A stretch of DNA of 63,408 nt, the filler included. It is 5 parts of 5 records of this genome, joined end to end, with 100 filler letters (N's around TTAATTAATTAA, not from the genome) between each part and the next. Parts side by side here need not be neighbours in the genome. Positions count along the whole stretch, not along the records: positions 1 to 26,648 come from SRR31156797_9401; 4 more parts are not named here. One strand, given 5' to 3'. Within the stretch, counting starts at the first letter, position 1. Every line of letters begins with the position of its first letter. Below, in pieces: positions 1,986 through 37,399 of the stretch. The notes below the pieces were generated by a model. That model did not search any database. It was not told where the DNA came from and saw only the letters and a list, made by a program, of their open reading frames with translations. The translations under genes were made by a program, and so were the position numbers.

Positions 1986-2858
1986 TTAGATTTTCGCCCT
2001 TAGCAGGCCTTCGGGTTTGAAGAATAACACCAACATAAGAATGGCAAACACCACCACATCCGTAAGATATGAAGCAATGATTCCTGCGCTCAAGGCTTCG
2101 GCCAGACCCATAATGAGTCCGCCTAATAAAGCGCCCCAAATATTTCCCAGCCCCCCGATAACAGCGCCTGCAATGCCTTTGATGGCCAGGGGAACACCTT
2201 TCTGGTATTGCATGAGGGCAATGGGAGAAATCAGAATCCCCCCTATGGCGCCTATCCCGGCCGACATGGCAAAACTGAGCATCCCCATCCTGTCCACATT
2301 AATACCCATGAGCATGGAAGCCTCGTGGCTCTCGGAGCAAGCGGTGCTCGCCTTGCCCCAGATGGTCTTATCAAAAAAGAATTTTAGAATGATCGTTATG
2401 ATGATTGCGGCGACAAATACCGGGATGACCTGGGAGTTGATTGAAGCGCCAAAGAGGTCAATTGACCCTGTTTTTACAAACGCCGGCAATGTGTAATCAT
2501 CAGTCCCCCAGATCAAATAGGCAACCCCTTGGAGAAACATGGATCCGGCAATCGTAATGAGAATCATCCTGACAGGTTCGGCTTTCCCAAGGACTTTTAT
2601 GGCGCCCAGATGAAACAACATGCCGGTAATCGTCACGGCCAAGACACCTACGATTAGTGCAATTCCAAGCGATGACCCGAACACGGAGGTCATTGAAATG
2701 GCGACCATTCCTCCAAGCATCAGGAACTCGCCCTGTGCAAAGTTGAGCACGGTGGTCACCCTGTAGATAAAGGAAAACCCGATGCCTACCATGGCGTATA
2801 TGGACCCCATGGTGAGACCCGATATTATAAACTGCGTATAGAGGGAAAGGGTATCCAA
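1986..2858 (-). CDS. livH: Branched-chain amino acid-type ABC permease (LivH family)
   Basis: GLTMGSIYAMVGIG...VLNFAQGEF, GGLGNIWGALLGG, KPEGL; TTG start. Confidence 0.88.
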   Translation of the reverse strand: MDTLSLYTQFIISGLTMGSIYAMVGIGFSFIYRVTTVLNFAQGEFLMLGGMVAISMTSVFGSSLGIALIVGVLAVTITGMLFHLGAIKVLGKAEPVRMILITIAGSMFLQGVAYLIWGTDDYTLPAFVKTGSIDLFGASINSQVIPVFVAAIIITIILKFFFDKTIWGKASTACSESHEASMLMGINVDRMGMLSFAMSAGIGAIGGILISPIALMQYQKGVPLAIKGIAGAVIGGLGNIWGALLGGLIMGLAEALSAGIIASYLTDVVVFAILMLVLFFKPEGLLRAKI

Positions 2859-2980
2859 ATCATGTCTCTCCTAAAATGTCTAATTTCTTATGGATTCAAG
2901 GTACCAAAAAGTAATATCCAACAAACCCTGTCTTTACAACATGGCCATTGAAAGCCTAATGCGAACCTGTCTATAATAAT

Positions 2981-3010
2981 TAAGGAAGACCCACGGAAGG
3001 GCCTTCCTTA
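2981..3010 (-). terminator. Intercistronic stem-loop after the substrate-binding protein gene
   Basis: TAAGGAAG...CTTCCTTA inverted repeat 8 nt after stop; typical mRNA stabiliser or partial terminator. Confidence 0.5.
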
Positions 3011-3018
3011 TTGAAGCA

Positions 3019-4194
3019 TCAGAACGCCGGAACCCATTCACCGTTCTCGATTTTCATGACTGAGGCCTGATCAACCCCAATACCCCTGTGATCGAGATCG
3101 CTGAAGGTATAATCGGCCTGTATTCCTTCGAGCTTGTGATTCTCAGCATAATCCCTTATCTTCTCGCCATCTGTTCCAACAGCCTTCATGGCATTGATAA
3201 ACATCAGAGCCGTATCGTAGCCACACGGTGCAAAAAACATGCTCCTTGGCTTTTTGCCGAATTTTGCCTCATATTTCTTGACAAAATCCTGGATCCGGCT
3301 TTTTTGTGGGTTGTTGTCCTTCAGGGATCCCACATAATTGGATATGGCGCCCACGGTATAGACATTAACGGTATTTTCCCCAAGAAGCTTTATGAACTTC
3401 TTGGAAAGGTTTGCATCTGAAGTCATCATCGGAACATCTTTCATACCCACCTGATCCCTGTTTTTAACAAGGATAGTCGCCGGGCCTCCTGACGCCATGG
3501 TCCCGATGCTGTCCGCACCCGCGGCCTTGATCTTGGACATCTGGGTCGTGAAATCGGTTCCTTTGTTGTCAAATTTCTCCTTAATGACGAGTTCCATGCC
3601 ATATTTCTTCGCCCATTTCTCATACATTGCCGCTGATAAATCTCCCATCTGGGAAAGAGGCTCAATGTTGCCAAGTTTCTTGTAACCTTTTTTCTTAAGC
3701 CATATGGTCTTCACCTCATCCTGTCTGGGAGTTCCAATACTCATGGCCCAAGTATAACATTTCTTACCCTTTTTTTTGTATTCCGGCAGAATCACGGCGT
3801 TAATCTGGATGCCCCCGGAAACGGCGGCGTAGGGAATTTTGTATTTTTCCGCCAGCGGCATTACCGTCTGGGTCGACTGGGTAATAACGGGCCCGCAGAT
3901 GGCCGCCACCTTGTCTTTCTTGATCAACTTTTCAAAGACGGTCCTCGCGGTATCCGGATTTGTCTTTGTATCGTAAACCACAAGTTCAATTTGTTTTCCG
4001 TTGATTCCCCCCTTTGCATTGGCTTCATCCACAGCCAATTTGGCGCCGTTGACGCAGTCTTCACCAATCCAACCGATCCGGCCCGTCATGCTGTAGGCAG
4101 CCCCCAGCTTGATGGTATCCGCGGCAAAAACAATGCCTCCGAAAAAAGTAAGGGCAGACAAGCACACAGCCATCGCGAAAAGTCTTTTCTTCAT
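3019..4194 (-). CDS. ABC substrate-binding protein, Leu/Ile/Val-binding (PBP type 1) family
   Basis: Signal peptide MKKRLF...VFA, IKLGAAYSMTG, NAKGGINGKQIELVVYD; ATG 4194 preceded by GGAGG. Confidence 0.88.
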   Translation of the reverse strand: MKKRLFAMAVCLSALTFFGGIVFAADTIKLGAAYSMTGRIGWIGEDCVNGAKLAVDEANAKGGINGKQIELVVYDTKTNPDTARTVFEKLIKKDKVAAICGPVITQSTQTVMPLAEKYKIPYAAVSGGIQINAVILPEYKKKGKKCYTWAMSIGTPRQDEVKTIWLKKKGYKKLGNIEPLSQMGDLSAAMYEKWAKKYGMELVIKEKFDNKGTDFTTQMSKIKAAGADSIGTMASGGPATILVKNRDQVGMKDVPMMTSDANLSKKFIKLLGENTVNVYTVGAISNYVGSLKDNNPQKSRIQDFVKKYEAKFGKKPRSMFFAPCGYDTALMFINAMKAVGTDGEKIRDYAENHKLEGIQADYTFSDLDHRGIGVDQASVMKIENGEWVPAF

Positions 4195-4281
4195 GATCCC
4201 CTCCAATTTTGTGATTTACGTTCCATCTAAACATTCCCCATGCACACCTAAGAAATCATATCACCTCCTTTGCCAAAAGAA

Positions 4282-4995
4282 TTAGGCTCCCATATAGGCT
4301 CTGACGACTTTTTCATCGTTCAAGAGTTCTTGGCTCTCCCCTTCCATGACGACCGATCCCGTCTCCAGAATATACCCTCTGTTGGAAATCTCCATGGCAG
4401 CCCTGACATTCTGTTCAACAAGCAGGATTGGGAGCCCTTCCCCATGAAGATTTTTAATAACGTCGAACATCGTGTTGACGATAATTGGGGCAAGGCCAAG
4501 GGATGGCTCATCAAGCATGAGCAATTTGGGTCTCCCCATGAGCCCCCTTCCGATGGCCAGCATCTGCTGCTCCCCTCCTGAAAGGGTTCCCGCTTTCTGC
4601 TTCTTCCTGTTTTTCAGTCGGGGAAAGAAATCGTAAACATTGCCCAATTCCCTTTTCAAATCCGCCTTCTTTGACTTGAAATAGTGGGAAAACGCGCCCA
4701 GAAGAAGGTTATCTTCAACCGAGAGTTCCTTTATGATCAATCGACCCTCAGGGATTTGTATAATTCCCTCACGGGTTATCTTCATGGATCCGAGCTTTGT
4801 AAGATCGATTCCCTGGAAAAGCTTGTTCCCTTTCCAAATGGGGATAATGCCGGAAATGGCCCGCATGAGGGTTGTTTTGCCGGCGCCATTGGCCCCCACA
4901 ACAGAGACAATTTCAGCCGTCTCAACTTTGATGGATACATCTTTAAGCACCCGTAATTTCCCATATCCGGTTGTAATATTGTTCAGCTCAAGCAA
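4282..4995 (-). CDS. livF: ABC ATP-binding protein (LivF family)
   Basis: GANGAGKTT, LSGGEQQMLAIGR, LDEPSLGLAP; likely TTG start at 4995 after GGAG. Confidence 0.9.
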   Translation of the reverse strand: MLELNNITTGYGKLRVLKDVSIKVETAEIVSVVGANGAGKTTLMRAISGIIPIWKGNKLFQGIDLTKLGSMKITREGIIQIPEGRLIIKELSVEDNLLLGAFSHYFKSKKADLKRELGNVYDFFPRLKNRKKQKAGTLSGGEQQMLAIGRGLMGRPKLLMLDEPSLGLAPIIVNTMFDVIKNLHGEGLPILLVEQNVRAAMEISNRGYILETGSVVMEGESQELLNDEKVVRAYMGA

Positions 4996-5764
4996 GGTCC
5001 TTCTCCTTCCCGAGATAGACCTCAATCACCTTTTCGTTATTCAGAATACTCTGAGGGTCGCCTTCAGCAATCTTGGTCCCGAAATTTAAAACCATTATCT
5101 GATCGGAAATGGTCATTATCAATTTCATGTTATGTTCGACAATTATTTGTGTAATCTTCTGTTCCTTGGTCTTGAAAATGATCTCCTGTAGGTTATCCAT
5201 TTCCCGATCATTGAGTCCTGCGCCGGGTTCGTCCAAAAGCAAAAGACTCGGTTTTGCGGCAAGCGCACGTGCAATTTCAAGAAGCTTTTGCTCGCCTAGA
5301 GCAAGCGATTCCACTTCATCATCGTCTTTACCTTCAAGCCCCACAAAGGCCAACATTTCTCTGGCAAACGCTTCGATGGTACGCTCTTCTCGTCTGCTCG
5401 CCTTAAAATTAAAGATGGCGCGTGCATATCTCGGTGAGACCCATCCATGACAGCCCACAGCGACGTTTTCGAGAACCGTCAGGTTATTGAACAGACGAAC
5501 ATTCTGGAATGTTCGGGCAACGCCTTTGACCGCAATGGCGTGGGGGAGATTATGGGTGATTGCTTCATTCTCAAAGACAATTTCTCCTTCATAATCCCTG
5601 TCAAATCCTGATATGAGGTTAAACAGCGTCGTCTTTCCGGCGCCGTTGGGCCCGATAATGGAAAAGATCACCCCACTTTCCACGTCGAAATCCACCCTGT
5701 GCAGGGCCTGAAGCCCCCCGAAGTACTTTGTAATTGAACGGCCGTTCAAAATGGAATCATTCAT
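4988..5764 (-). CDS. livG: ABC ATP-binding protein (LivG family)
   Basis: GPNGAGKTT, ARTFQNVRLF, LLDEPGAG, VIEVYLG. Confidence 0.9.
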   Translation of the reverse strand: MNDSILNGRSITKYFGGLQALHRVDFDVESGVIFSIIGPNGAGKTTLFNLISGFDRDYEGEIVFENEAITHNLPHAIAVKGVARTFQNVRLFNNLTVLENVAVGCHGWVSPRYARAIFNFKASRREERTIEAFAREMLAFVGLEGKDDDEVESLALGEQKLLEIARALAAKPSLLLLDEPGAGLNDREMDNLQEIIFKTKEQKITQIIVEHNMKLIMTISDQIMVLNFGTKIAEGDPQSILNNEKVIEVYLGKEKDLA

Positions 5765-5823
5765 TTTATCAATCCACAGCTAAGTTTTGTTCCCTATTAG
5801 CGTGCCCTTAGTCCCTTTATCGG

Positions 5824-6747
5824 TTACTTCAATCTCAGCAATTTATTCAAACCACCCACAAGACCACTGGGCAGAAATATAAGAATAAGCATAAATGCGA
5901 GGCCCTCCAGGAGCAGCTCCAGTCTCTCCAGATGGCCTAGGAACTCCGGCAGGGCAAATAAGATCAGTGCTCCGATAAGGCCCCCATAAATACTCCCTGC
6001 CCCTCCGAGGAAAAGCATGAGAAGAAGTTTTACTGAAAGCATGATATTGAAACTGTTGGGTGAAATAATGGCGCCGTAATGGGCGTAGAGGCTCCCTGCC
6101 AATGCCGCCAGGGCGGCGCTGAACACAAATGCCTGGATCTTGGTCCTGGGCACATTTATTCCCATACATGCAGCAGCTTCCTCATCGGTGTGAATCGCTT
6201 TCATACTTCTGCCAAGGGCTGTTTCGCCGATACGAAGGCAGACGATGACCAGGAGGAAAACGACGGTCCATACAAGGTAATAATAGCTGCGATCCGTATC
6301 GAAGCTGTAGCCCAGGATGCTCAATGGCGGTATGCCGGAGATACCGGAAGAACCCCCAAAATACTGTGTGCGAATGAGGGCCTCCACAATAAAACCGAAC
6401 CCCATGGTGGCTATGGCCAAATAATATCCTTTCAATCTTAAGGTGGGTATTCCAACTACAAAGGCGATCACGCAGGTGATGAAAATCCCCCCGGCAATGG
6501 CAAGCAGGGAAGGCCAGCCAAACCAGGTTGTTGCAATGGCCGTGGCATAAGCGCCAATGGCAAACAGCCCGTTGTGACCCAATGAAATCTGTCCGCAATA
6601 ACCCAACAACAGGTCGTACCCCACTACGATAAGGCCGTAAATGCCCGCATAAATCAGCACTGTGATCCAGTAGGAATCGGGGAATGCAAACGGAAAAAAA
6701 AATATACCGGCGATCAATATGGGCAATACAACAAAGTATGAACGCAA
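5824..6747 (-). CDS. livM: ABC permease (LivM family)
   Basis: GYCGQISLGH, LRLKGYYLAIATMGF, GRSMKAIHTDEEAA; TTG start. Confidence 0.88.
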   Translation of the reverse strand: MRSYFVVLPILIAGIFFFPFAFPDSYWITVLIYAGIYGLIVVGYDLLLGYCGQISLGHNGLFAIGAYATAIATTWFGWPSLLAIAGGIFITCVIAFVVGIPTLRLKGYYLAIATMGFGFIVEALIRTQYFGGSSGISGIPPLSILGYSFDTDRSYYYLVWTVVFLLVIVCLRIGETALGRSMKAIHTDEEAAACMGINVPRTKIQAFVFSAALAALAGSLYAHYGAIISPNSFNIMLSVKLLLMLFLGGAGSIYGGLIGALILFALPEFLGHLERLELLLEGLAFMLILIFLPSGLVGGLNKLLRLK

Positions 6748-6794
6748 TTTAACTTAACCCCCTTCTTTCTTCACAGCCTTCCCAGCAGATCCGT

Positions 6795-7400
6795 TTACGG
6801 AGATATCACATATAACGAAGGATCCGTTCCCAAATCCTTCTTGAGCTGGCGTGCGCCATCGGATTTAATGAGCCTTGAAACTTCGCTGTCAGGGTCATCA
6901 AGATCGCCAAAATATCTGGCCTTTCCCACGCAGCCTTGCACACAAACGGGCTGCTTTTTTTCTTTGAGCAGGTGAAAACAAAAAGTGCATTTCTCCACCG
7001 TCCCCAACTTGTGCTTCGCGTAGCCGATCTCTTCATTGGGCGTTAGGACGTCGCCGAAATAACCCCTTTTTTCATCATTATAATAGCGGGCCCCATAAGG
7101 GCAGGCCTCAATGCAATATTTGCACCCCACACATTTGTCGTAATCGACCAAGACGAATCCGTCTTCGCGCTTGTAGCTTGCGCCCGTGGGGCATACATCA
7201 ACACACGGGGGTTCGGCGCAGTGGGCGCACTGCACGGGCAAGAATATTCGGGAGACATTGGGATACTTTCCGAACTCCTGATCCTTCACAATATTCCAGA
7301 ATATGCCCGGCCGGGTGCCGTTTTCCACCTTGCACGCGATGGTGCAGGTCATGCAGCCGATGCATCTCTCAAGGTCTATCACCAATCCGTATCTCGCCAT
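6795..7400 (-). CDS. 4x[4Fe-4S] electron-transfer subunit (DmsB/PadC/NrfC family)
   Basis: CIGCMTCTIAC, CAHCAEPPCVDVCP, CVGCKYCIEACPY, KCTFC...PVCVQGC. Confidence 0.9.
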   Translation of the reverse strand: MARYGLVIDLERCIGCMTCTIACKVENGTRPGIFWNIVKDQEFGKYPNVSRIFLPVQCAHCAEPPCVDVCPTGASYKREDGFVLVDYDKCVGCKYCIEACPYGARYYNDEKRGYFGDVLTPNEEIGYAKHKLGTVEKCTFCFHLLKEKKQPVCVQGCVGKARYFGDLDDPDSEVSRLIKSDGARQLKKDLGTDPSLYVISP

Positions 7401-7417
7401 TTAACCTTATCTCCCTC

Positions 7418-10024
7418 CTATGCCCTGTAAACCTTAACCTTGATGGAAAACCCTTGCTGGTTGCCGGTCATGGGATCCGTCCAGGCAGGATCAATGGGCA
7501 ACAGCGTCGACAGGGTAACCCGTCCGGTATCTTTGGCGATTGGCATCCCCCACTGGCCGAATTGGCCGGCCATCAGAAGCGTGTCCGGACGTATCCCCTG
7601 GCGCAGGGTTACCCTCCCGTTTACCCTGGCCACCGGGGATTCAACCCATATGGCGTCGCCCTCTTTGATTCCTCGCGACTCCGCTGCATCGGAATTCATG
7701 ACGATATTTGTCTGATCAGGCAATTGCTCGGCCAGTTCGTTCATCCATGGGAGCCCCAGATTTGACCCGTAACTGAACATGATGGGCCTACAGGTGGTCA
7801 CAAAAAAATCGTACTCGGCAGGGACTTCATCCAGTTTTGAGGGAAAGTACGTGGGAAGCGCCGTATATTCATCCGTCGGCCACCAGTCAATCCCCTTTTC
7901 AGCCAAATTGCGGCCCAGCTCCTCACCCGTCCTTTTCACCTCCTCCATGTAGGGAACGGGGTATCGCAACCCTTGCGCCTTCATGCCCGGATGGATGTCG
8001 TACTGATCTTCCGCCTGGGCCGGACGGGTCATGGCGCCGTGCTTCTTGAACCACTCAAGATCATGGGTCCCATTGGTATAATGTTTGCAGCACCTGTCCG
8101 AAATTTCCTCCCATGTGTATCTTTTCCCCTTTTCCAACTTGTACTGTTCGGAAAGGCCGAGCTTTTGATTGAACACCCTATTCATCTCATCTGAAAAACC
8201 CGTTCGATGGGCCAGTTCCAGAAGGATATCGTTGATATTCATGGCATTTACGGGATTTACCACCGGCTGGGCCAGGGCCAGCATGAAGTACTTCTTGTGG
8301 CATGCGTTCCTGATGTTGAAATAGGGCATGTATCGCTCAAACTCAATCTGCTCCGGAATAACCATATCCGCATAATCGGACACTTCATCCATAACGTAAG
8401 AGATGCTCACCACAAAGGGTATCCGTTCCAAGACCTCTATGATCACTTCCGGGTTGCCCAGGGCCAACAGGGGATTGGTGCGGTATCTTATCCACACATC
8501 GGGGGGCTCTGGAACCGGCAAATTTTTGGGAGGCCGCGCCAGGTTTCGCCAGTTGAGATGATCCATCTGGAAATGAAATTCCCCCGGATCATCATATGGC
8601 GGCTTGGCATGGGCATAGTCGGACATGGGGCACAGGGTTTCGATGGCGCCATAGGATATGGGCGGCCAGATGAAAGGGTAGTGGTGCACGTCCCGCATCC
8701 CGTCTTTCCCGGGGATGATGCCCGCATCCAGGCCGTATTGTTTCCACAAAATGTCGCCTTTTCGTTTGCCTTTTGCGAATGTGCTGCCGCCCATGTGCCC
8801 GCCGGGGACCTCCATGGAACCCACCAAAGCTGCAAGAACGTGGTTGGCCAGTATGGTTTGGTAAGACCGCATGACCCCCGTGGGCCCCCTCCCGATCTTG
8901 GTGGCAACAGGCCTGTAGGGCAATGTTATGCCGTCCAGCTCAATGTTGCTGCCGATGCATGCGTTTTCCACCCATTCTCCGGCGATCCGTCTTATGGCAG
9001 CAGCTGAAATATCCGTGATTTCCGAAGCCCATTCAGGGGTATATCCCGCAACATGTTCTTTGAGTGCCTGAAAGGCCGGTCGGCATTCCGTCCCTTCCAC
9101 CTTGAAGGCGCCTTCCAGGCCCGGGTCCTTGATGGTCTCATCATCGTATGGCTTTGCTTTTTCTGCCGCCGAATCCCATATGAGGACCTTGCCTGTATCC
9201 TTGTCCCTTGCGAAATACCCATCCGGCCCCACAAGGTATGGCGAGTTGGTCATCTCCTTCAAATATGGCGCATCGTAAACCCCCAGCTCGTTCACAATGA
9301 CATGGATCATGGACAGCATGAAGGGTAGATCCGTGCAGGGTTTGATGGGAACCCATTCATCCGCTTTGGCGGCGGTCACGGAAAAAACCGGATCAATGAC
9401 CACCGTCTTCATCCCCCTCTTTCTTGCGTCGGAGAAGAGGACGCCTTCAGGCGTCCCCCCGGAAGCGGACGTATTGCTGCCGATGAGTAAGAGATATTTG
9501 CAGTGTTCCAAGTCGGGCTCGCATTGAAAAGCGCCGTGTATTCTGTTGGAAAAGGCGTGTTCGCTCTGGTCGCACCGCGTGGAGCGCCCGCCTATGAGCG
9601 ATTGCGTCGGACCAAAGGCTTGAAAAAAGGGTCGCCATCCGGCCTGACGCATGGCGCCGATTCCGCCGCCTTCCGCAAGCTTTCTCGTATCATCGGCCCT
9701 GACCTTTTTCAGTTTTTCCGCAATGGCGTCCAGGGCCTCGTCCCAGCTTATTTCAACCCACTTGGGGTCCACCCCACGACCTTTTTCGGGGTTCGTCCTT
9801 TTGAGAGGGCCTTTGATCCGGTTCGGGTTATAGATTTTTTGAATCACGCCGAACGATTTCGGACAGAGGCGGCCCTGGTTTTTAACCTGGCGCTCAAAAT
9901 CCTCCAGTTGGGTGTTGGGTTCAACACCTACAGCGACCCCGTCGACCCTGTGCACCCTCAGGAGGCAGGGTGCGTCCGCGCACTGCGACTCACATAATGT
10001 GGTGATCCACACATCTTCCTTCAT
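7418..10024 (-). CDS. Mo/W-bisPGD oxidoreductase catalytic subunit, PadB (phenylacetyl-CoA:acceptor oxidoreductase)-like, cytoplasmic
   Basis: N-terminal 4-Cys cluster motif, GPLKRTNPEKGRG-DP-WVEISWDEAL, ADEWVPIKP, C-terminal molybdopterin-dinucleotide domain with GQFGQW; no Tat signal. Confidence 0.8.
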   Translation of the reverse strand: MKEDVWITTLCESQCADAPCLLRVHRVDGVAVGVEPNTQLEDFERQVKNQGRLCPKSFGVIQKIYNPNRIKGPLKRTNPEKGRGVDPKWVEISWDEALDAIAEKLKKVRADDTRKLAEGGGIGAMRQAGWRPFFQAFGPTQSLIGGRSTRCDQSEHAFSNRIHGAFQCEPDLEHCKYLLLIGSNTSASGGTPEGVLFSDARKRGMKTVVIDPVFSVTAAKADEWVPIKPCTDLPFMLSMIHVIVNELGVYDAPYLKEMTNSPYLVGPDGYFARDKDTGKVLIWDSAAEKAKPYDDETIKDPGLEGAFKVEGTECRPAFQALKEHVAGYTPEWASEITDISAAAIRRIAGEWVENACIGSNIELDGITLPYRPVATKIGRGPTGVMRSYQTILANHVLAALVGSMEVPGGHMGGSTFAKGKRKGDILWKQYGLDAGIIPGKDGMRDVHHYPFIWPPISYGAIETLCPMSDYAHAKPPYDDPGEFHFQMDHLNWRNLARPPKNLPVPEPPDVWIRYRTNPLLALGNPEVIIEVLERIPFVVSISYVMDEVSDYADMVIPEQIEFERYMPYFNIRNACHKKYFMLALAQPVVNPVNAMNINDILLELAHRTGFSDEMNRVFNQKLGLSEQYKLEKGKRYTWEEISDRCCKHYTNGTHDLEWFKKHGAMTRPAQAEDQYDIHPGMKAQGLRYPVPYMEEVKRTGEELGRNLAEKGIDWWPTDEYTALPTYFPSKLDEVPAEYDFFVTTCRPIMFSYGSNLGLPWMNELAEQLPDQTNIVMNSDAAESRGIKEGDAIWVESPVARVNGRVTLRQGIRPDTLLMAGQFGQWGMPIAKDTGRVTLSTLLPIDPAWTDPMTGNQQGFSIKVKVYRA

Positions 10025-10061
10025 CTGAATCTTCCTCTTTTCCTACCTGGGACAGGGAAAT

Positions 10062-11075: not shown

Positions 11076-11102
11076 CTTGCACCATTACTCCCTGAGTCAA
11101 AA

Positions 11103-11606
11103 TCAAACCATTTCCATTTTTAATGATTCGCGCGTATACCGCATCAGGCCACCTGCCCGAAGGATTTCCCGCAAGAAGGGGGGGTAGGGTTCAGCGGCAA
11201 AGCTTGTGCCTGTTGTTTCATCCACCACCTCTCCGGATCGTACATTCACCCTTATGCGATGCCCGTTGGGCAAATCATTTGCTTTAATCCCCCGGCAGAC
11301 AATCAGGGGGAATCCCCGCGCTATCCCGCCGCGAAAAAAAATTCTGCCGAAGGAGTTTGCCACCACGCCGCCCAGATTCAAATCCTGAAGGATTTCCACC
11401 GAGGGCCTGGAGCTGCCGCATCCGAAGTTCTCACCCGCTACAACAATGTCTCCAGGCTGCATTTTCGACACAAAATCGGGACAAATATTCTCAAAGCAGT
11501 GGGATGCCCTTTCCATGGGGTCCGCCACATTAATATACTGTGCGGGCAGGATCTGGTCCGTATCCATATGATTCCCGAAACGCCACACATTTCCGGAAAA
11601 AATCAT
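11103..11606 (-). CDS. Aconitase-family hydratase small subunit (LeuD/DmdB-like)
   Basis: MDTDQILP, GDIVVAGENFGCGSSR, SFGRIFFR, AGGL; overlaps large subunit stop. Confidence 0.88.
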   Translation of the reverse strand: MIFSGNVWRFGNHMDTDQILPAQYINVADPMERASHCFENICPDFVSKMQPGDIVVAGENFGCGSSRPSVEILQDLNLGGVVANSFGRIFFRGGIARGFPLIVCRGIKANDLPNGHRIRVNVRSGEVVDETTGTSFAAEPYPPFLREILRAGGLMRYTRESLKMEMV

Positions 11607-14250: not shown

Positions 14251-14957
14251 TGATCTCCCTTTTTAAGGGGAAGTGTTTCAATGTATTGGATAACGTCTTC
14301 CGAAGGCATGACATCCGCCCACTTCTGGTCCATGTCAAAAAGATTAATGGCATGGCTGACCTCTCCACGGTCAAATACACCGTCTTCCACCACAACCACG
14401 TTGAACCCGTAGGAAAAGGCGTCGGCAACCGTCGCCCTGACGCACCCGCTGGTGGTGGCGCCCGTCACGATGACGGTATCTCTGTCCAGGTCGTTCAGAT
14501 AGGTCATGAGAGGCGTCCCGAAAAACGCTGAAGCGTATCGCTTACTGACGATGACATCCCCCTGTTCCGGGGCAATGGACTCAATGATCTGGGTTCCACG
14601 GTTCCCGATGTAGCTTGTCTTATCGGCGATGGCCGGGATCTTGTCTTTCCATCTGCCGGTATCAAACCGGTTCTTTCGCTCCACAACGGGATAGAGGATG
14701 GGAACGCCCCGGGGTCGGGCGGCCGCCAGTAACGCTTCAATGACACGTACCGATTTCCAGCCGGTCTCGCCGCAACTGGTCTTGTACTCTTCAATGGCTT
14801 CCAGAATCGGTTTGGGTTCTTCACCACAGGTCCGATATTGGACGTCAATGATCAAAATCGCAGGTCTCGTTCCAAAACCTGCTCTGTGACCAAAACCTGC
14901 TGCTTCATAAACCTGGCCGTCAAGCTTTGTGAGATATTTATCCCATATACGACTCAT
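14247..14957 (-). CDS. Isochorismatase-family cysteine hydrolase (maleamate amidohydrolase / N-carbamoylsarcosine amidase-like)
   Basis: Asp (IIDVQ), Lys (SKRYASAFFGT), Cys (GATTSGCVRAT) triad. Confidence 0.85.
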   Translation of the reverse strand: MSRIWDKYLTKLDGQVYEAAGFGHRAGFGTRPAILIIDVQYRTCGEEPKPILEAIEEYKTSCGETGWKSVRVIEALLAAARPRGVPILYPVVERKNRFDTGRWKDKIPAIADKTSYIGNRGTQIIESIAPEQGDVIVSKRYASAFFGTPLMTYLNDLDRDTVIVTGATTSGCVRATVADAFSYGFNVVVVEDGVFDRGEVSHAINLFDMDQKWADVMPSEDVIQYIETLPLKKGDQ

Positions 14958-14997
14958 ATCCGCCTCCTTTGAGTTTCCGAGGGCAAAGAGAAACGCC

Positions 14998-15885
14998 CTA
15001 TTCTCCAGTGTTGTTTAAGAATTGCCTCTCGAATTCATAGAAATCATCCAATCCCAGAAGTTGACTCCTCTCCTCAAGACCGACCATGTCGTCCAAATAC
15101 AACCTGATGTCGCCGGTCTCATGAAAATCCGACAGGAATTTTTGAATGGCCTTGATGGCAATTTTCTGAGAAGATCCGGAAAATGAAGCGATCTTAAAGC
15201 CCATTTCCTTCAGCTCTCTTATGGTCACCAATGGGGTCTTCCCACCTTCAACAAGATTAACCATCTGAGGCGCCGCTATGGAGGAGGCAATTTTTTTCAA
15301 TTCTTCCATGGACCGGGGCGCTTCAACAAAAATCATGTCAGCGCCCGCCTCTACATAATCTCTTGCCCTTGAAATGGCTTCGTCCAATCCGAAAACCGCC
15401 AATGCGTCGGTTCGGGAGATAATAACCAGGTCGGGATCTCTCCTTGTTTCCACGGCAGCTCTGATCTTCGTGATCATTTCTTCTCTTGAAACAATTTTTT
15501 TCCCCTCAAAATGGCCGCACCTTTTCGGAAAAATCTGGTCTTCCATCCAGAAACCGGCCACACCGGCTTCCTCAAACTCCCTCACGGTTCTCATGACGTT
15601 AACGGGGCCGCCATAACCATTGTCGCAATCACAAATAACGGGAAGGGTTGTTGCATTCACAATGTTTTTGGTTTGATTTAACACCTCAGTCATGGTCATC
15701 AGCCCCACATCCGGGACCCCGAGAACAGCGGCGCAAACCCCCGCCCCAGTCACGCCAACTACCTTGTAACCGGTTTTTTCAATCAACTTGGCCGTCAAAG
15801 AATCATAGCTGCACGGCATGGCAATAGTGCCCGGTTCCGCCAACAACTGTCGTAGTCGAGTGGTTTTACGCATTTCTTCCGTCAT
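14998..15885 (-). CDS. Isocitrate lyase/PEP mutase family C-C lyase (PrpB / 2,3-dimethylmalate lyase-like)
   Basis: DCDNGYG, EDQIFPKRCGH catalytic loop, ISRTDA, GADMIFVEA, NLVEGGKTP. Confidence 0.88.
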   Translation of the reverse strand: MTEEMRKTTRLRQLLAEPGTIAMPCSYDSLTAKLIEKTGYKVVGVTGAGVCAAVLGVPDVGLMTMTEVLNQTKNIVNATTLPVICDCDNGYGGPVNVMRTVREFEEAGVAGFWMEDQIFPKRCGHFEGKKIVSREEMITKIRAAVETRRDPDLVIISRTDALAVFGLDEAISRARDYVEAGADMIFVEAPRSMEELKKIASSIAAPQMVNLVEGGKTPLVTIRELKEMGFKIASFSGSSQKIAIKAIQKFLSDFHETGDIRLYLDDMVGLEERSQLLGLDDFYEFERQFLNNTGE

Positions 15886-15904
15886 GATTACCTTGCCAAC
15901 CTCC

Positions 15905-17110
15905 TTAAGAGAGGGGGATAGTGACGCCCCATGGTTTAGCCGGTTTATCCAATGCCGTTCTCAGCACCCTGTTGCGCCAGAGAATTTCTTCCCGGTTGGG
16001 ATGAATCATTTGTATTCCCACCAGCCGTCCATCCAGAAAAACCTGGTGAAAAAAACGTTTACCCTGTCCCATGTCTTTCGTTTCAGGTGAAAGGCCTCGC
16101 CCACGCAATTCGGCCTCCGTAAAACCCACAAAGGCCAACGGCGTATCAAAAAGTTGGGCGGTCCCCATTTGAAGCGTCGGCGGGAACTCAGACGGCAGCC
16201 CCGCGGCGTTCATGCCGGCAACGCGCCCCTGGCCGACGCCGAAATACCAAAAGAGGTTAAGCCGGTCCTCGGAAAAAAGGGGATCCGGATATTCGGCCAC
16301 GTCGCCCACTGCGTAAATACCCTGAGCCGAGGTTTGCATGGACGCATCCACCAGGATGCCGTGATTCGCCCCAAGGGTGATGCCGGCATCCTCAGCTAAG
16401 GTTGATTCGGGTTTCATGCCGGTTGCCCAGACCACAAGATCCGTTTTCAATCTCCGTTTATCAGTTTTAACCGCCGCCGCCTTATCCGCGCCGTGGACTT
16501 CCATCACCCATTCCTCAAGCCCCACATCAATCCCTTGCGCTTCCAGGGTTTGCTGCGCCCTTTCCGCCATAACGGGGTCAAGAATCCGGGGACCGATTCG
16601 ATCCATTGCCTCAATGAGGGTCACCTCTTTGCCCAGCTTCCTAAGCGCAATGGCTGCCTCAATCCCGATCAAGCCGGATCCGATGACCACTGCGCTCCCA
16701 AAAGACCATTGGCGGATGTGTGTGGCATCGTCCAAGGTCTTTAAGGTGAAGTTGCCCGGGAGATTTGCGCCCTGAACCGGCGGGATAAGTGATACGCTCC
16801 CCGTGGCAAGAATCAGTCGATCGAAGGAAATAGATGACCCTTCCGCAAAGAGGACCTCTTTCTTTAAGGGGTCAATAGACGATACGCGGTTTCCGCGGCG
16901 GCGTTCAAATCGCGTGGACGTTTGGCCGGGGTCTTCAAGGACAACCCTTTCCCGAGGGATGTCCCCTGATACATAGTCGGGCAAAACGCAGGCAGAGTAA
17001 TAAGGGGTCGTATCTCCATCAATCAGGGTGACCCTGGCATCTGGATTCCGAAGTGCCCCATTGGCGGCTGAATTGCCGGCCACCCCATTTCCGATTACGA
17101 CGATATGCAT
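15905..17110 (-). CDS. FAD/NAD(P)-dependent oxidoreductase (AorC-like, pyridine nucleotide-disulfide family)
   Basis: VIGNGVAG, LILATGS, VIGSGLIGIEAA, IYAVGD. Confidence 0.85.
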   Translation of the reverse strand: MHIVVIGNGVAGNSAANGALRNPDARVTLIDGDTTPYYSACVLPDYVSGDIPRERVVLEDPGQTSTRFERRRGNRVSSIDPLKKEVLFAEGSSISFDRLILATGSVSLIPPVQGANLPGNFTLKTLDDATHIRQWSFGSAVVIGSGLIGIEAAIALRKLGKEVTLIEAMDRIGPRILDPVMAERAQQTLEAQGIDVGLEEWVMEVHGADKAAAVKTDKRRLKTDLVVWATGMKPESTLAEDAGITLGANHGILVDASMQTSAQGIYAVGDVAEYPDPLFSEDRLNLFWYFGVGQGRVAGMNAAGLPSEFPPTLQMGTAQLFDTPLAFVGFTEAELRGRGLSPETKDMGQGKRFFHQVFLDGRLVGIQMIHPNREEILWRNRVLRTALDKPAKPWGVTIPLS

Positions 17111-17140
17111 GGTCTGTTAACCCTAAACAAAAGACTTATT

Positions 17141-17605
17141 CTACAAGTCGGGAAAGAATTTTTTTGCAGCATGACGCATCTTGGTGGTGGCAAGCTGCGT
17201 CGGGGGGAGGTACTGAATGGCCTTCTTCTCGCAAAGTTTCACACATTCAGGTTCGCCTCCACACAGATCACATCTAAGGACTTCGCCTTCCGGGGACACA
17301 AGGGTTGCTCCGAAAGGACACGCCAGGGCGCACATATGACACTGTATGCAGAGTTCTTTCCGCGTTTCCATGGCGCCTGTTTCCGGGTTGCGACCGATGG
17401 CATGGGTCGGACAGGAATCCTCACATGGCGCTTCTTGGCATTGAAGGCAGGTAACCGGAATGTCAACCCCCTGGATCTCCCACCGCATAACCCGGATCCT
17501 CGCTCGGGCCGGGTTGCATTCCCCAAAGTGCACCAAAGAGCAAACAGTCTCACATGCCCGGCAACCTGTACAAACTTCAGGGTTGGTCACAATCATCTTT
17601 GTCAT
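17141..17605 (-). CDS. 4Fe-4S polyferredoxin subunit (AorA/HydN/CooF-like)
   Basis: CTGCRACETVC, CLQCQEAPCEDSCP, CIQCHMCALACP, CDLCGGEPECVKLC. Confidence 0.88.
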   Translation of the reverse strand: MTKMIVTNPEVCTGCRACETVCSLVHFGECNPARARIRVMRWEIQGVDIPVTCLQCQEAPCEDSCPTHAIGRNPETGAMETRKELCIQCHMCALACPFGATLVSPEGEVLRCDLCGGEPECVKLCEKKAIQYLPPTQLATTKMRHAAKKFFPDL

Positions 17606-17611
17606 CGCTAA

Positions 17612-17851
17612 CTAGCCTCCGTGAAGCATTGGCATGATCTTGATTTCATCTTTATCCTCGAGCAGAACGTCATCGGTAATGAGCTTTTTGTTGATGGTCA
17701 CAACACAGCCGTCTCCGATGTATTCCGTCTCCTTTTCCTTGGCCAAGGATTTCAGGAAAGCGCGTAGGGTCCTGGAGTCCTCTTCGACGCTTACGCGCCT
17801 GAACTCCCGATTGCTCCCTCCAAAAAAACTGACACTTACCTCAATGCTCAT
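17612..17851 (-). CDS. MoaD/ThiS-family sulfur carrier
   Basis: 79 aa, beta-grasp size, C-terminal LEDKDEIKIMPMLHGG. Confidence 0.85.
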   Translation of the reverse strand: MSIEVSVSFFGGSNREFRRVSVEEDSRTLRAFLKSLAKEKETEYIGDGCVVTINKKLITDDVLLEDKDEIKIMPMLHGG

Positions 17852-17864
17852 GGCCTCTTCTCAT

Positions 17865-19781
17865 TTACGCGGCAGGCTTTTCCGTTTTGCCGAGTTCAAC
17901 CAACTCATCCGCCACATCGGGCATACCCAGTCTGTTCAAGGCCTCATAGGTGGGGATTCCCGTCTCCGGATTTGCCCCAACCCGTTTATAATATGCTTTG
18001 AGCATATCTCTGAAAGGTCCTGGTTCCAGGACATCGCCCTTGTACTTGCCCACTGAAAGCGGCTCCTTTTGCAATCTCTCGCAGGGAATATCGTCTTCAA
18101 TGGTCATCCCTTCCCTTGCGTTGATGGACATCTCAAGGAGCCAGGTCCTGTCAGCGGCGCTAACGAAATCTTCCACGCTGTAATCGGCGCCGGTGGCCGC
18201 GTTGAACATCTCATTAATCTGCTCAATGTAAGTGGGATATCCGCACCAGAACGTATTGAAAAGGCAAATCCCCGTGCTGTCGCATATGGTGGCAAGCCGT
18301 TGATAATATTGAACGCCTTTGGGTTTCCCTTCGGTTTCGTAGAGTTTTGGGTTCATAACATCCGTTGTGCCGAAGAGCTCCATCACCTGTTCTTTTGTGG
18401 CCTGCATACCCTCGGCTTTTAGAAGCCCCCTGCAATGGTGCCCCCCTACCGTTGAGGTGGCATATGAAAGAGCCCATGCCTTCATGTTGCGTGTTTCAAC
18501 GGCTGTGGGGCACATCTTTTTGAAATGAACCACGCGGGAAGGCGCATTCCCCCCGATCTTTTGGGCCATGAGATAGGGCCCTTCCGCCAGAAGGTCTCCA
18601 AATCCATCCCTGTGGGCGATCTTATGGATGCATTGAACCATTGAATCCCTGTTTCCCCAGGTCAAATCGATCTGATCCGTATCTTTCAACGTAAGGATAT
18701 CGCGTTCGAATAAATCCATGGCCAGGGCAATACTGCCGCCTGTGGATACCACATCCAGCCCATACTGGTTTGCGAGATTTGCACACTCAAAGACCGTCTC
18801 CATATCATTGAAGTTGCCGCTTCTCAGACCAAAGGCATTCATGGTCTCGTACTCCACGCCGAGCCCCTCCTGTTTGCCGGTTCTGAAATAGTGGTCGCAA
18901 TGGAAAAAGCACCCGTGACAGGCCCTGTTCTTGGTGGCAAACTTCTTCAGAAAGGTTTCTCCCGACATTGCATCCACATCATCAAGCGTATTAATGCTCC
19001 AGTTCTTAACGGGGACGGTTTCCAGCATATTCTTATGTTCCGTGAGCATGGGCGTTCCGTATTTGGGATACCAGTCGTACATGGGCGTGCCGACGCTGTC
19101 CTTGTACATCCTTTTAATCAGGTGAAGAAATTCTTTTGGCTTGGCAATTTTGACGCCTCTGGTTCCCCTCGTGGCCACACATTTTACTCTTTTCGATCCC
19201 AGAACGGCGCCGACCCCTGTCCTGCCGTTTGCCCTGGCAAAAGAATTCATTACGGCGGCATATTTCACCAGGTTTTCGCCTGCCTGACCGATCCCGATGA
19301 CCTGAACCGAAGGATCGTTTTCGGTCCGCCTGATCTGTTCCGTGGTTTCCCAGAAATTCTTCCCCCATAAATCAGACGCGTCTCTTATTTCGACCGTTTC
19401 ATCATCAACCCAAATATAGACCGGTTTGTCGGACCGGCCGGTGAATACAATGGTGTCATAACCCGCGAACTTGAACTCAGCCCCCCAGTGTCCCCCTGCA
19501 TTGGCGTCCCCCAGGATACCGGTGAGCGGGGAAAGCGCCGACGCGTCGCAACGCCCGCCAACCAACGTTCCGGTCAAAACCCCCGTACCGAGGACAGCAA
19601 CATTTTCCGGCGACAGCGGATCCGTGCCTGCCTCAACATTGTCAAAGAGGATCTTGACATTCATCCCCCTGCCGCCGAGGAAAAGCTTCTTCCATTCGCT
19701 GGGGATGCGCTCTTTTGTTATTTTTTTTTCGTTTAGATCGACCCAAAGAATCTTTCCGGCCCATCCGTAATCCTGACCCAT
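17865..19781 (-). CDS. aor: Tungsten aldehyde:ferredoxin oxidoreductase family protein
   Basis: LGGRG, SPLTG...NAGG-WG-EFKFAGYD, GRTGVGAVLGSK, CHGCFFHC, EYET, GICLF. Confidence 0.9.
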   Translation of the reverse strand: MGQDYGWAGKILWVDLNEKKITKERIPSEWKKLFLGGRGMNVKILFDNVEAGTDPLSPENVAVLGTGVLTGTLVGGRCDASALSPLTGILGDANAGGHWGAEFKFAGYDTIVFTGRSDKPVYIWVDDETVEIRDASDLWGKNFWETTEQIRRTENDPSVQVIGIGQAGENLVKYAAVMNSFARANGRTGVGAVLGSKRVKCVATRGTRGVKIAKPKEFLHLIKRMYKDSVGTPMYDWYPKYGTPMLTEHKNMLETVPVKNWSINTLDDVDAMSGETFLKKFATKNRACHGCFFHCDHYFRTGKQEGLGVEYETMNAFGLRSGNFNDMETVFECANLANQYGLDVVSTGGSIALAMDLFERDILTLKDTDQIDLTWGNRDSMVQCIHKIAHRDGFGDLLAEGPYLMAQKIGGNAPSRVVHFKKMCPTAVETRNMKAWALSYATSTVGGHHCRGLLKAEGMQATKEQVMELFGTTDVMNPKLYETEGKPKGVQYYQRLATICDSTGICLFNTFWCGYPTYIEQINEMFNAATGADYSVEDFVSAADRTWLLEMSINAREGMTIEDDIPCERLQKEPLSVGKYKGDVLEPGPFRDMLKAYYKRVGANPETGIPTYEALNRLGMPDVADELVELGKTEKPAA

Positions 19782-19812
19782 GGCTCACCCTCCTCAAAAT
19801 GGTATTTTGTCC

Positions 19813-20448
19813 CTATAATATATTGGTTAACGTATTGAATGCGTTTTTCAAATGATTCTGCATGGCGGCATAACTCAGGTCCTCATCTCTTTGTCTCAGA
19901 GCGCGCACGATTTTGAGGTGTTCCTCGATCGCTTCCTTTCGCCTGAAGCTGTAACTGAATAACCGGATGATATCTAATTTTGTGTAAATATTGTCGAGGA
20001 TATCCTTGAGAACTTTGTTGCCTGAACTTTCGATGATGAAAAAATGGAATTTTCTGCCCAGATCCACAAAATCACCTTTCCTTTTTCCCTGCCTGAAGGC
20101 CTCAAACAGTTCTTCAAACTCCTCGAGACGACCCATGTCGACCTCCTTTGCCGCAAGCTTTGCGGCAGCAGCCTCAAGAAACATCCGAACTTCAAAGATA
20201 TCCCTAATGTCTTTCAGGGTGGGGATATTAACAAAAGATCCCCTTGTCCCATAGGTTATGATAATCCCTTCGCTTTCGAGCCTCCTCAATGCCTCGCGGA
20301 TGGGGGTTCTGCTCATACCCAATAGAGAAGCCAGCTTGACCTCGGACAACGGTTCTGAAGGGTCGGTTTTAAACTCCAGGATATGATTTCTGATTTCGAT
20401 GTAAGCCTTTTCAGATTTCGCCTTGTCGGTGTTCTTCATCCTATTCAT
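19813..20448 (-). CDS. GntR family regulator with FCD domain
   Basis: LSEVKLASLLGMSRTPIREALRRLESEG HTH; FH...SGN...EEHLKI...H FCD motif. Confidence 0.9.
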   Translation of the reverse strand: MNRMKNTDKAKSEKAYIEIRNHILEFKTDPSEPLSEVKLASLLGMSRTPIREALRRLESEGIIITYGTRGSFVNIPTLKDIRDIFEVRMFLEAAAAKLAAKEVDMGRLEEFEELFEAFRQGKRKGDFVDLGRKFHFFIIESSGNKVLKDILDNIYTKLDIIRLFSYSFRRKEAIEEHLKIVRALRQRDEDLSYAAMQNHLKNAFNTLTNIL

Positions 20449-37397: not shown

Positions 37398-37399
37398 TT

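Follow-up and report, generated by a model that had tools for sequence, protein, structure and literature searches.

A conserved gene cluster that may serve the anaerobic catabolism of an N-heterocyclic compound

What can an anaerobic bacterium do with a run of 18 co-oriented genes in which a cyclic amidohydrolase, an amidase, a hydro-lyase and a carbon–carbon lyase stand between a tungsten and a molybdenum enzyme, with a transporter at one side? The run lies on the minus strand at positions 1986-20448 of the window, by which we mean the whole stretch of 63,408 nucleotides that was analysed, and belongs to the first of the contigs joined in it (1-26648). To our knowledge, only a few cases of anaerobic N-heterocycle degradation, namely those of nicotinate, purines and indoleacetate, have been worked out, and the anaerobic fates of most natural N-heterocycles are not known. 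The reading favoured here, with a probability of about 0.45, is that the run is part of a conserved cluster by which an anaerobe breaks down an N-heterocyclic compound that is probably carboxylated. The protein families, the intact catalytic residues, the operon-like packing and the conservation of both the cluster and its core are established.

An initial annotation had named a family for each gene, and these assignments are borne out: all 18 open reading frames (ORFs) are located where they had been placed, and Pfam and NCBIfam return the family named for each of them. The close spacing that had been described is found as well, with gaps of -38 to +160 nt. Stop and start codons overlap by 4 nt at three junctions (isochorismatase/hyd, hyd/leuC and leuC/leuD), and livG and livF overlap by 38 nt. 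The co-orientation of 19 genes, if an epimerase gene discussed below is included, and the three 4-nt overlaps that run across amidase, hyd, leuC and leuD support a common function in catabolism.

The argument starts from the hydrolytic and lyase genes in the middle of the run. The gene called hyd (12874-14250) encodes a binuclear-metal cyclic amidohydrolase of the hydantoinase/dihydropyrimidinase/allantoinase family, in which the ligands of the binuclear site (HxH, carboxylated Lys, His, His and Asp) are all aligned with those of 1gkr and 1nfg. Its best solved relative is the L-hydantoinase 1gkr (4e-68). It represents a separate subfamily: the score stays below the cut-off of the D-hydantoinase equivalog model (295.8 vs 393.25 bits) and likewise below those of the allantoinase, dihydroorotase and ErtD models, the identity to annotated dihydropyrimidinases and hydA genes is 34-35%, and in the ESM Atlas only clusters named 'dihydroorotase family protein' are matched. 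The adjoining gene (14247-14957) encodes a cysteine-hydrolase amidase of the isochorismatase family (Isochorismatase 1.4e-31). Its Asp-Lys-Cys triad is aligned in five structures, the Cys standing opposite the Cys-to-Ala variant 4l08_B, and the TGATTSGCVRAT motif of the NicF/Ami/N-carbamoylsarcosine amidase clade is present. Among its solved relatives (26st 8e-37, 1nba 7e-31, 4l07 3e-30, 3ot4 8e-25) the N-carbamoylsarcosine amidases (8e-37, 7e-31) rank first, followed by 4l07 and 3ot4, which we take to be the maleamate amidases Ami and NicF; E-values of 8e-37 and 3e-30 do not discriminate a half-amide from an N-carbamoyl substrate.

The C–C lyase (14998-15885) belongs to the isocitrate lyase (ICL)/PEP-mutase family and is related to PrpB and petal death protein. 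Petal death protein 1zlp is its closest solved relative (2e-71), ahead of methylisocitrate lyases (1e-55 to 1e-59) and 2,3-dimethylmalate lyase (1e-51), and it remains below the cut-offs of the prpB equivalog models (300.6 vs 354.4 bits; 254.7 vs 353 bits). The catalytic loop KRCGH is present (PKRCGH, residues 120-125). Its segment NLVEGGKTPL is aligned to NMIEGGKTPL of petal death protein, with EGGKTP common to both, and FS is aligned to HS of that protein, with the Ser opposite Ser257. An Arg (LEERSQ) is aligned to the PrpB Arg and has no counterpart in petal death protein. On the other side of hyd follow the large and small subunits of a hydro-lyase. The LeuC/HacA-type subunit (11603-12877) scores 506 bits with the PRK00402 LeuC/HacA subfamily model (cut-off 385), is below the cut-off of the LEU2 equivalog, and has Cys303, Cys363 and Cys366 as three candidate cluster cysteines. 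The LeuD/DmdB-type subunit (11103-11606) scores 148.9 bits with TIGR02087, the 'LeuD/DmdB family' model (cut-off 109).

Whether such a combination means anything depends on its recurrence elsewhere. Relatives of hyd were sought in contigs representing one genome per species (600 pattern-matching stretches, 530 confirmed relatives, best 80 kept) and in metagenome contigs (596 matches, 523 confirmed, 80 kept). Among the best 80 of the 530 relatives in the former, none exceeds 43% identity. On L081, a 60-kb metagenome contig, counterparts of 20 of the 26 proteins used as queries from the window are encoded, arranged as in the window and with 83-96% amino acid (aa) identity (MoaD 70%); the other six lie outside the fetched L081 stretch. 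A further contig, L082, keeps gntR-aorB-moaD-aorA-aorC-lyase-amidase-hyd, eight genes in order with 51-83% identity, up to its end. Since the same genes occur in the same order in L081 and L082, the arrangement is judged to be more than chance. A large protein collection holds 43 clusters at least 61% identical to hyd. Together, hyd, the amidase and the ICL-family lyase were found in 9 of 166 fetched loci that hold a hyd relative (L049, L081, L082, L085, L086, L167, L171, L172 and L174). As matches to hyd or the amidase had served to fetch these loci, the sample is biased. The objection that these genes do not co-occur elsewhere thus fails: L081 and L082 share them, and the hydrolase/amidase/lyase core recurs in many lineages.

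The core also occurs on plasmids. Plasmid records gave 313 amidase matches at about 45-50% identity and 22 hyd matches at E<=1e-60. Ten of these hyd records, at 38-44% identity, have an amidase match within 10 kb in every case, and the other 12 (34-38%) are mostly annotated dihydropyrimidinases. On pSMS3-3 of Antarctobacter heliothermus, ICL-family and GntR genes diverge from a set comprising AcnA, an NTF2-like gene, hyd and the amidase. This layout is repeated on a plasmid of Shinella sp. WSC3-e (L171), where an NAD-dependent aldehyde dehydrogenase and a class A flavin monooxygenase stand in the same operon and the cluster also holds an Asp/Glu-racemase-family protein, an ATP-binding cassette (ABC) importer and a HemL-like class III aminotransferase. 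The context in a Pararhodobacter bin resembles that in Antarctobacter and Shinella, including AcnA. Methylobacterium nodulans pMNOD02 and Variovorax sp. PBL-E5 each have most of a set composed of the amidase, a Liv-type ABC system, hyd and a fumarate-reductase/TcuA-like flavoprotein with a PrpD-family protein on either side. In M. nodulans, GntR and the ICL-family lyase were seen as well; the fetched Variovorax stretch begins downstream of the place where they are expected. Hydrogenophaga sp. BPS33 combines hyd and the amidase with a gene annotated prpB and TctC-type binding proteins, and in Novosphingobium resinovorum pSA1 the core trio was found by tblastn. Judged from these gene contexts, the core is a conserved module whose final enzymes belong in every case to the chemistry of di- and tricarboxylic hydroxy-acids. 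The aerobic versions carry NAD- and flavin-dependent oxidation enzymes, the counterparts to be expected, in the places taken in the window by the tungsten-type aldehyde oxidoreductase (AOR) and the Mo enzymes.

Several of these loci have features of their own. In L171 (16057-18337) the HemL-like aminotransferase (334 bits with a glutamate-1-semialdehyde aminomutase subfamily model, below its cut-off) is followed by a plasmid-borne hemC. The core of L085 (2667-15816) has diverged (43% for hyd, 52% for the amidase, 39% for the lyase) and lies between NuoE/NuoF-like genes and a NuoG-like Mo-domain protein, together with a doubled family III CoA-transferase and an enoyl-CoA hydratase, suggesting that the oxidative module exists in an NAD-linked form as well. 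Plasmid 3 of Variovorax sp. PBL-E5 (L173, 1-13400) carries a second paralogue of hyd (41%). Its neighbours are a carbon-nitrogen hydrolase, RidA, a luciferase-like monooxygenase, an F420 reductase and all of cofCDEGH for the biosynthesis of F420, and this looks like a different, F420-linked heterocycle pathway.

The redox enzymes of the window lie at both sides of the hydrolytic genes. The first is a tungsten-type, AorB-like AOR (17865-19781; AFOR_N + AFOR_C) with the cluster motif CxxCxxxC (Cys288/291/295). Its matches in the PDB are best with AORs (9mqx 6e-115, 1aor 1e-113, 8c0z 4e-99), followed by formaldehyde ferredoxin oxidoreductase (FOR, 4e-81) and BamB (2e-71), so that by sequence it groups with true aldehyde oxidoreductases and not with BamB or FOR. 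It is adjoined by a MoaD/ThiS-like small protein with C-terminal GG (17612-17851; ThiS 1.6e-08; moaD model 1.3e-06, below cut-off), an AorA-like poly-[4Fe-4S] electron-transfer subunit (17141-17605; Fer4 families; N-terminal part of PadI 5.7e-25) and an AorC-like FAD/NAD(P) oxidoreductase (15905-17110; Pyr_redox_2 4.8e-65; PadH model 3.8e-56). A MoaD-like gene is presumably present in the Aromatoleum aor operon too. The combination of AOR, poly-ferredoxin, FAD/NAD subunit and MoaD-like gene fits the layout of AorABC, an aldehyde oxidoreductase described as consisting of three subunits in a preprint on that enzyme (10.1101/2023.01.23.525143).

Downstream of leuD follows a second redox enzyme, composed of a Mo/W-bisPGD catalytic subunit (7418-10024; Molybdopterin + Molydop_binding), a four-cluster FeS subunit of the DsrO/ArrB/PsrB type (6795-7400; Fer4_11 3e-25) and a membrane anchor (10062-11075; TmcC 1.5e-38). 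In the anchor a TmcC/HmcE (NarI-like) cytochrome b domain (TmcC model on residues 4-192) is fused to 2x[4Fe-4S] (Fer4 families on residues 198-285). The catalytic subunit matches PsrA and ArrA in the PDB at about 1e-32 and has the N-terminal Cys motif. Neither it nor its FeS partner has a twin-arginine (Tat) leader; the FeS subunit lacks a signal peptide and is matched by the DsrO model from profile position 42 onward. Because of the missing Tat leader and the NarI/TmcC-like anchor, the enzyme is predicted to lie on the cytoplasmic side of the membrane, with menaquinone as its likely partner in electron exchange. Homologues of the catalytic subunit (53-81% identity) carry the automatic JGI name phenylacetyl-CoA:acceptor oxidoreductase; no NCBIfam PadB model matched the subunit itself. 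The enzyme of that name, PadBCD, is described in one account as catalyzing the alpha-oxidation of phenylacetyl-CoA to phenylglyoxylate (PMC5109826). In Chloroflexota, 4 of 401 genomes hold the Mo subunit at E<=1e-100 (33-40% identity), mostly beside the FeS subunit and with no hyd.

The third enzyme is encoded upstream of the run by a trio of the xanthine dehydrogenase (XDH) family, all on the minus strand: a molybdopterin subunit (22759-25152; Ald_Xan_dh_C + MoCoBD_1/2; 89% aa in L081), a [2Fe-2S] subunit (25238-25723; Fer2_2 + Fer2; 175-190 bits with the XdhC, PucE and 4-hydroxybenzoyl-CoA reductase (4-HBCR) gamma models) and an FAD subunit (25806-26648; FAD_binding_5 + CO_deh_flav_C) that has lost its 5' end. 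The molybdopterin subunit matches the alpha subunit of 4-hydroxybenzoyl-CoA reductase best in the PDB (1rm6_A 1.7e-103), and then nicotinate dehydrogenase 3hrd (9e-65), both of whose Mo chains are matched (9e-65, 2e-48). AOR-family genes occur near hyd relatives in other loci (L006, L012, L089, L097, L098, L140), as do XDH trios (L019, L021, L023, L043, L046, L053, L139, L155). Equal sizes and source furthermore suggest, circumstantially, that hyd and Mo-subunit relatives may share contigs of 38688, 117365, 20241 and 29803 bases, and that hyd and AOR relatives may share contigs of 41074, 12821 and 45983 bases.

How these parts could act together was put together from the families, and what each enzyme acts on, in which sequence the steps follow and what the three redox enzymes do is what we infer rather than observe. 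The compound would be imported by the Liv-type ABC system, whose family membership alone is established, and sensed, either itself or as an acid intermediate, by a repressor of the GntR/FCD type. Water-dependent Mo/W enzymes would then take the place of oxygenases. The XDH-family hydroxylase may set a carbonyl beside the ring N to give a lactam, and the PadB-like Mo enzyme, wired to menaquinone through cytochrome b, may oxidise an activated CH2 to C=O, by which the lactam would become a cyclic imide or a side chain would be altered. The AorABC-type tungsten enzyme would convert an aldehyde, which could be a formyl substituent or the open form of a hydroxy-lactam, to the carboxylate. Ring opening by Hyd would yield a half-amide, from which the cysteine-hydrolase amidase would free NH3 to leave a substituted maleate or aconitate-type acid. 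From this acid the LeuCD-type FeS hydro-lyase could form a substituted malate, either by hydration or by isomerisation, and retro-aldol-type cleavage by the lyase could then give a 2-oxoacid (or glyoxylate) and propionate or succinate. A CoA-transferase and a methylmalonyl-CoA epimerase may finally pass the acid product to the methylmalonyl-CoA route. The sequence of ring opening, deamidation, hydration and C–C cleavage, which had also been proposed initially, seems to be the one that fits the conserved core best.

Some observations weigh against this proposal. In NCBIfam every enzyme is below the curated cut-off of any named equivalog, except for the epimerase and the generic LeuC and LeuD subfamily models. 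The nearest relative of the XDH-family enzyme dehydroxylates a CoA ester reductively and is no ring hydroxylase. Of the loci inspected at the DNA level, L081 alone has the Mo enzyme next to a hyd relative, and both this enzyme and the AOR may be accessories acquired independently. The pocket motifs of the lyase vary among relatives (EGGKTP, VGGQTP, an insertion in L049), as does the hydratase partner (AcnA, PrpD or LeuCD), and therefore the relatives may use different substrates and say little on that of this cluster. Moreover, since hyd is closest to hydantoinases and the amidase slightly closer to N-carbamoylsarcosine amidase, these two would fit a ureide route equally well. Hyd would then be a true hydantoinase or dihydropyrimidinase, or a hydrolytic Rut-like enzyme, and the amidase an N-carbamoyl or ureidoacrylate amidohydrolase comparable to CSHase or RutB. 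With a thymine-like substrate, aminoacrylate would lead to methylmalonate semialdehyde, which the AOR would convert to methylmalonate, and this to succinyl-CoA by the CoA-transferase and epimerase. Such a route has the closest solved relatives on its side (L-/D-hydantoinases, 4e-68; N-carbamoylsarcosine amidases, 8e-37 and 7e-31; RutB and BiuH are also matched), gives a direct role to the AOR, CoA-transferase and epimerase, and agrees with the XDH trios that commonly adjoin hyd relatives and with Actinoplanes relatives that pair hyd and the amidase with a TRZ/ATZ deaminase and a luciferase-like monooxygenase, a pyrimidine-like set. However, it leaves LeuCD and the ICL-family lyase idle, even though no partner accompanies hyd and the amidase more constantly than the lyase, and it does not explain the AcnA or PrpD partners of the relatives. 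Hyd, at 34-35% identity to annotated dihydropyrimidinases, forms a separate 38-44% group with the clustered relatives, and no dihydropyrimidine dehydrogenase is among the families found on the contig. An imide and half-amide are favoured over a ureide because the constant downstream partners act on N-free acids and the core has no constant deaminase or aminotransferase; that none is kept in the core favours an N-free acid after the two hydrolytic steps. We regard the ureide route as unlikely, yet not so unlikely that it should be neglected.

A mosaic is conceivable as well, in which a redox module of the arylacetaldehyde or arylacetate type (AOR, CoA-transferase, PadBCD-like and 4-HBCR-like enzymes) shares one operon with an unrelated imide/amide module (hyd, amidase, LeuCD and lyase). 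These four redox and CoA functions are best known from the anaerobic degradation of phenylalanine, phenylacetate and 4-hydroxyphenylacetate, the aerobic relatives hold the hydrolytic core without these redox enzymes, and the matching contig sizes mentioned above seem to pair hyd with the Mo enzyme in some relatives and with the AOR in others. Against two unrelated halves stands the interleaved order: the hydrolytic genes lie between the AOR block and the Mo block with gaps of 19-40 nt, under one regulator and with one transporter. L081 shows the same interleaving, and so does L082 as far as its contig reaches. Furthermore, the 26.6-kb contig has no PadEFG (phenylglyoxylate oxidoreductase core), benzoyl-CoA reductase or ring beta-oxidation genes, and AOR- and XDH-family genes recur beside hyd relatives in unrelated lineages, so that a mosaic must be considered quite improbable. 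A known precedent for the terminal steps, the nicotinate fermentation of Eubacterium barkeri, whose composition was reportedly set out by Alhapel et al. 2006, would have the XDH-family enzyme as nicotinate dehydrogenase, Hyd as enamidase, and LeuCD and the lyase as dimethylmaleate hydratase and 2,3-dimethylmalate lyase. The two systems share an XDH-family Mo enzyme in the locus and a LeuCD-type hydratase followed by an ICL-family lyase, and the matches to both nicotinate dehydrogenase chains, the LeuD score with the 'LeuD/DmdB family' model and the lyase match to 2,3-dimethylmalate lyase (1e-51) are all compatible with it, as is the epimerase, which makes a propionate product plausible. But the steps from hydroxylation to dimethylmaleate are absent here: 6-hydroxynicotinate reductase, 2-(hydroxymethyl)glutarate dehydrogenase and dehydratase, B12-dependent 2-methyleneglutarate mutase and methylitaconate isomerase, five or six defining enzymes, were not found among the ~24 genes of the contig, which is cut at 26648. 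The amidohydrolase is hydantoinase-like and not of the enamidase type, and this hydrolase, the cysteine-hydrolase amidase, the tungsten AOR and the PadB-like enzyme are additions, the last three of which would be left without a role. This fermentation can hardly be what the cluster encodes.

Other known systems resemble parts of the cluster. A route from imide to half-amide and then to acid and NH3 is followed in the cyclic-imide metabolism of bacteria and by HxnM and HxnN of Aspergillus nidulans. One report on nicotinate catabolism in this fungus describes HxnM as an imidase of the PuuE/polysaccharide-deacetylase type and HxnN as an amidase-signature enzyme (PMC9304392). That known route is aerobic and uses other families, whereas here a binuclear amidohydrolase and an isochorismatase-family cysteine hydrolase would act. 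The maleamate amidases NicF and Ami and the N-carbamoylsarcosine amidase form one cysteine-hydrolase clade with the amidase, sharing triad and motif, but their partners are dioxygenases and deformylases or an ATP-dependent hydantoinase, and the matches are in the range of 8e-37 to 8e-25. With AorABC and PadBCD of Aromatoleum and Thauera the cluster has in common a W subunit with poly-ferredoxin, FAD subunit and MoaD-like gene, and a Mo subunit with FeS subunit and membrane anchor. The likeness to AorABC lies in layout and in the match to PDB 8c0z (4e-99), that to PadB in the JGI names of homologues; the gene order differs, neither the PadJ ligase nor PadEFG is found here, and the substrate is not expected to be phenylacetate. 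The methylcitrate cycle and tricarballylate utilisation come to mind since in relatives of the core the lyase stands together with AcnA, or with a TcuA/fumarate-reductase-like flavoprotein and PrpD-family proteins, and the lyase of the window keeps the PrpB-type Arg. Unlike the methylcitrate cycle, the cluster has no PrpC-type synthase and a lyase that is below the prpB cut-off and closer to petal death protein, and its acid would stem from hydrolysis of an N-compound instead of from propionyl-CoA and oxaloacetate.

Which N-heterocycle could enter a route through a cyclic imide was considered on paper for nicotinate, picolinate, quinolinate, isonicotinate/citrazinate, pyridoxal, thymine/uracil, imidazole acids and porphobilinogen/hematinic acid. 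Five-membered rings of the maleimide type would yield the cis (maleate-type) acids used by LeuCD-type enzymes, while the six-membered 2,6-dioxo rings of citrazinate or isonicotinate would yield the trans isomer, trans-aconitate, and nicotinate-type skeletons, by the same paper chemistry, are predicted to yield no maleate unit. The AcnA and PrpD partners of relatives suggest tricarboxylates resembling aconitate or methylcitrate no less strongly than they suggest simple alkyl-maleates. For any single named substrate the chance is slim at best. A slim chance is likewise given to the idea that the cluster is an O2-independent route for tetrapyrrole-derived monopyrroles, such as methyl-maleimides of the hematinic-acid type, their pyrrolinone or formyl precursors, or an aminomethyl-pyrrole of the porphobilinogen type, and the evidence does not single it out. 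The porphobilinogen/pyrrole idea came from the HemL-like aminotransferase and hemC of the Shinella cluster. Here, the Mo/W enzymes would raise a pyrrole to the imide level, the hydrolases would free NH3 and a carboxyalkyl-methyl-maleate, and the LeuCD-type enzyme and lyase could give 2-oxoglutarate and propionate, or succinate in the case of porphobilinogen. Leaves and lake sediments do contain hematinic acid and substituted maleimides, according to one paper (PMC7318184).

The borders of the unit are wider than was initially thought. It had been called an 18-gene, GntR-led operon, which does not hold: the gene for the GntR+FCD regulator (19813-20448; GntR 1.3e-15, FCD 5.9e-28; 84% aa in L081, 65% in L082) is not the first, and a methylmalonyl-CoA epimerase gene (20698-21093, minus strand; 80% aa in L081) lies directly upstream on the same strand. 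The 131-aa product passes the TIGR03081 equivalog cut-off (134.8 vs 114.95 bits) over the whole profile (1-129), and in a 1-kb alignment of window and L081 a 400-nt block upstream of gntR is kept in a coding-type manner on the minus strand. An ORF of 172 codons on the plus strand (20548-21066) was rejected as a gene; it has no family match and 49% identity in L081, and it is taken to be an antisense shadow because the opposite strand encodes the conserved epimerase. Beyond the epimerase lie a divergently transcribed family III CoA-transferase (21478-22665, plus strand; CoA_transf_3 1.4e-72; 87% aa in L081), whose NCBIfam matches (succinate-glutarate, oxalate, mesaconate and formyl-CoA types) are all far below the cut-offs, and the XDH-family trio, all of which are kept in L081. 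The unit thus appears to be larger than 18 genes, with about 24 in total.

Nor can the pathway be called complete, as had been claimed, since the contig end at 26648 severs the cluster. The XDH-family FAD gene is interrupted there, so that its product lacks some 20 N-terminal residues and the XdhB model (220 bits) is matched from profile position 21, and because the contig ends inside this gene further cluster genes may exist beyond 26648. At 26649 an artificial spacer begins. The five contigs of the window are separated by four such spacers of the form N44-TTAATTAATTAA-N44 (26649-26748, 34905-35004, 44040-44139 and 53853-53952). The cluster contig has a GC content of 0.517 vs 0.30-0.41 for the other four, and because of this sharp contrast it may be mis-binned with them. 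Directly past the first spacer, an acetolactate synthase large subunit gene (26749-28107) lacks its C-terminal quarter, being truncated by the contig end. One low-GC contig holds nadC, nadB and nadA together (35285-38335, minus strand), for quinolinate phosphoribosyltransferase, L-aspartate oxidase and quinolinate synthase; this is ordinary NAD biosynthesis and has no relation to the cluster.

As a candidate operator for the GntR/FCD regulator we propose the palindrome CTTGTATGCAAG at 20554-20565, about 105 nt upstream of gntR. A perfect CTTGTATACAAG is found at the equivalent site of L081 (3700-3711), also about 105-110 nt 5' of gntR. The consensus of window and L081, CTTGTAT(G/A)CAAG, lies just downstream of a conserved TTGACA; in L082 no convincing copy was found. 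At the other end of the run, livM (5824-6747), livG (4988-5764), livF (4282-5025), the gene of a substrate-binding protein (SBP) with signal peptide (3019-4206) and livH (1986-2858) encode the ABC importer of the Liv/HAAT type. The best match of the SBP to solved structures is only 5e-29, which gives no clue to the ligand. A 12-bp GC-rich hairpin directly 3' of the SBP gene (3010-2981, minus strand) is in the usual position for raising the stability of an SBP transcript, as it may do here, and a terminator-like hairpin (1894-1881, minus strand) follows about 90 nt past livH. Promoter and terminator scans gave results near chance (18 promoter-like sites vs 17.7 expected; 27 terminator-like sites vs 24.8 expected). 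Past livH, at a distance of 551 nt and likewise on the minus strand, comes a gene for a TrpB-like (TrpB2-type) pyridoxal phosphate enzyme (46-1434; 698 bits, which exceeds the cut-off); it is not counted into the unit.

All parts of the cluster come from known families, while the combination and its widespread core are, as far as we searched, apparently undescribed. The initial impression that it does not map closely on a described pathway is supported by the distance of the best solved relatives (petal death protein 2e-71, L-hydantoinase 4e-68, N-carbamoylsarcosine amidase 8e-37). In the open-access literature no description of this gene combination or of its aerobic core was found, an account in a subscription journal remaining possible, and open-access literature on citrazinate/isonicotinate and on hematinic acid/maleimide yielded no bacterial catabolic cluster.

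The association of a tungsten AOR, a PadB-like Mo enzyme and an XDH-family enzyme around one hydrolytic and lyase core is an unusual trio. Since the core is present on plasmids of cultured aerobes (Antarctobacter heliothermus, Shinella, Methylobacterium nodulans, Variovorax, Hydrogenophaga, Novosphingobium resinovorum), its substrate should be findable by ordinary growth tests and knock-outs, and the result should be transferable to the anaerobic version. Aerobic enzymes (aldehyde dehydrogenase, flavin monooxygenase) and anaerobic ones (tungsten AOR, Mo hydroxylases) would then form a natural pairing for one pathway, and the cluster may give a first physiological role to the large PadB-like family in metagenome bins of Chloroflexota and Thermodesulfobacteriota. 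If the compound should prove to be a monopyrrole, the cluster would show by what route anoxic sediments mineralise the pyrrole units of chlorophyll and heme, and the plasmid clusters of cultured aerobes would be the aerobic counterpart.

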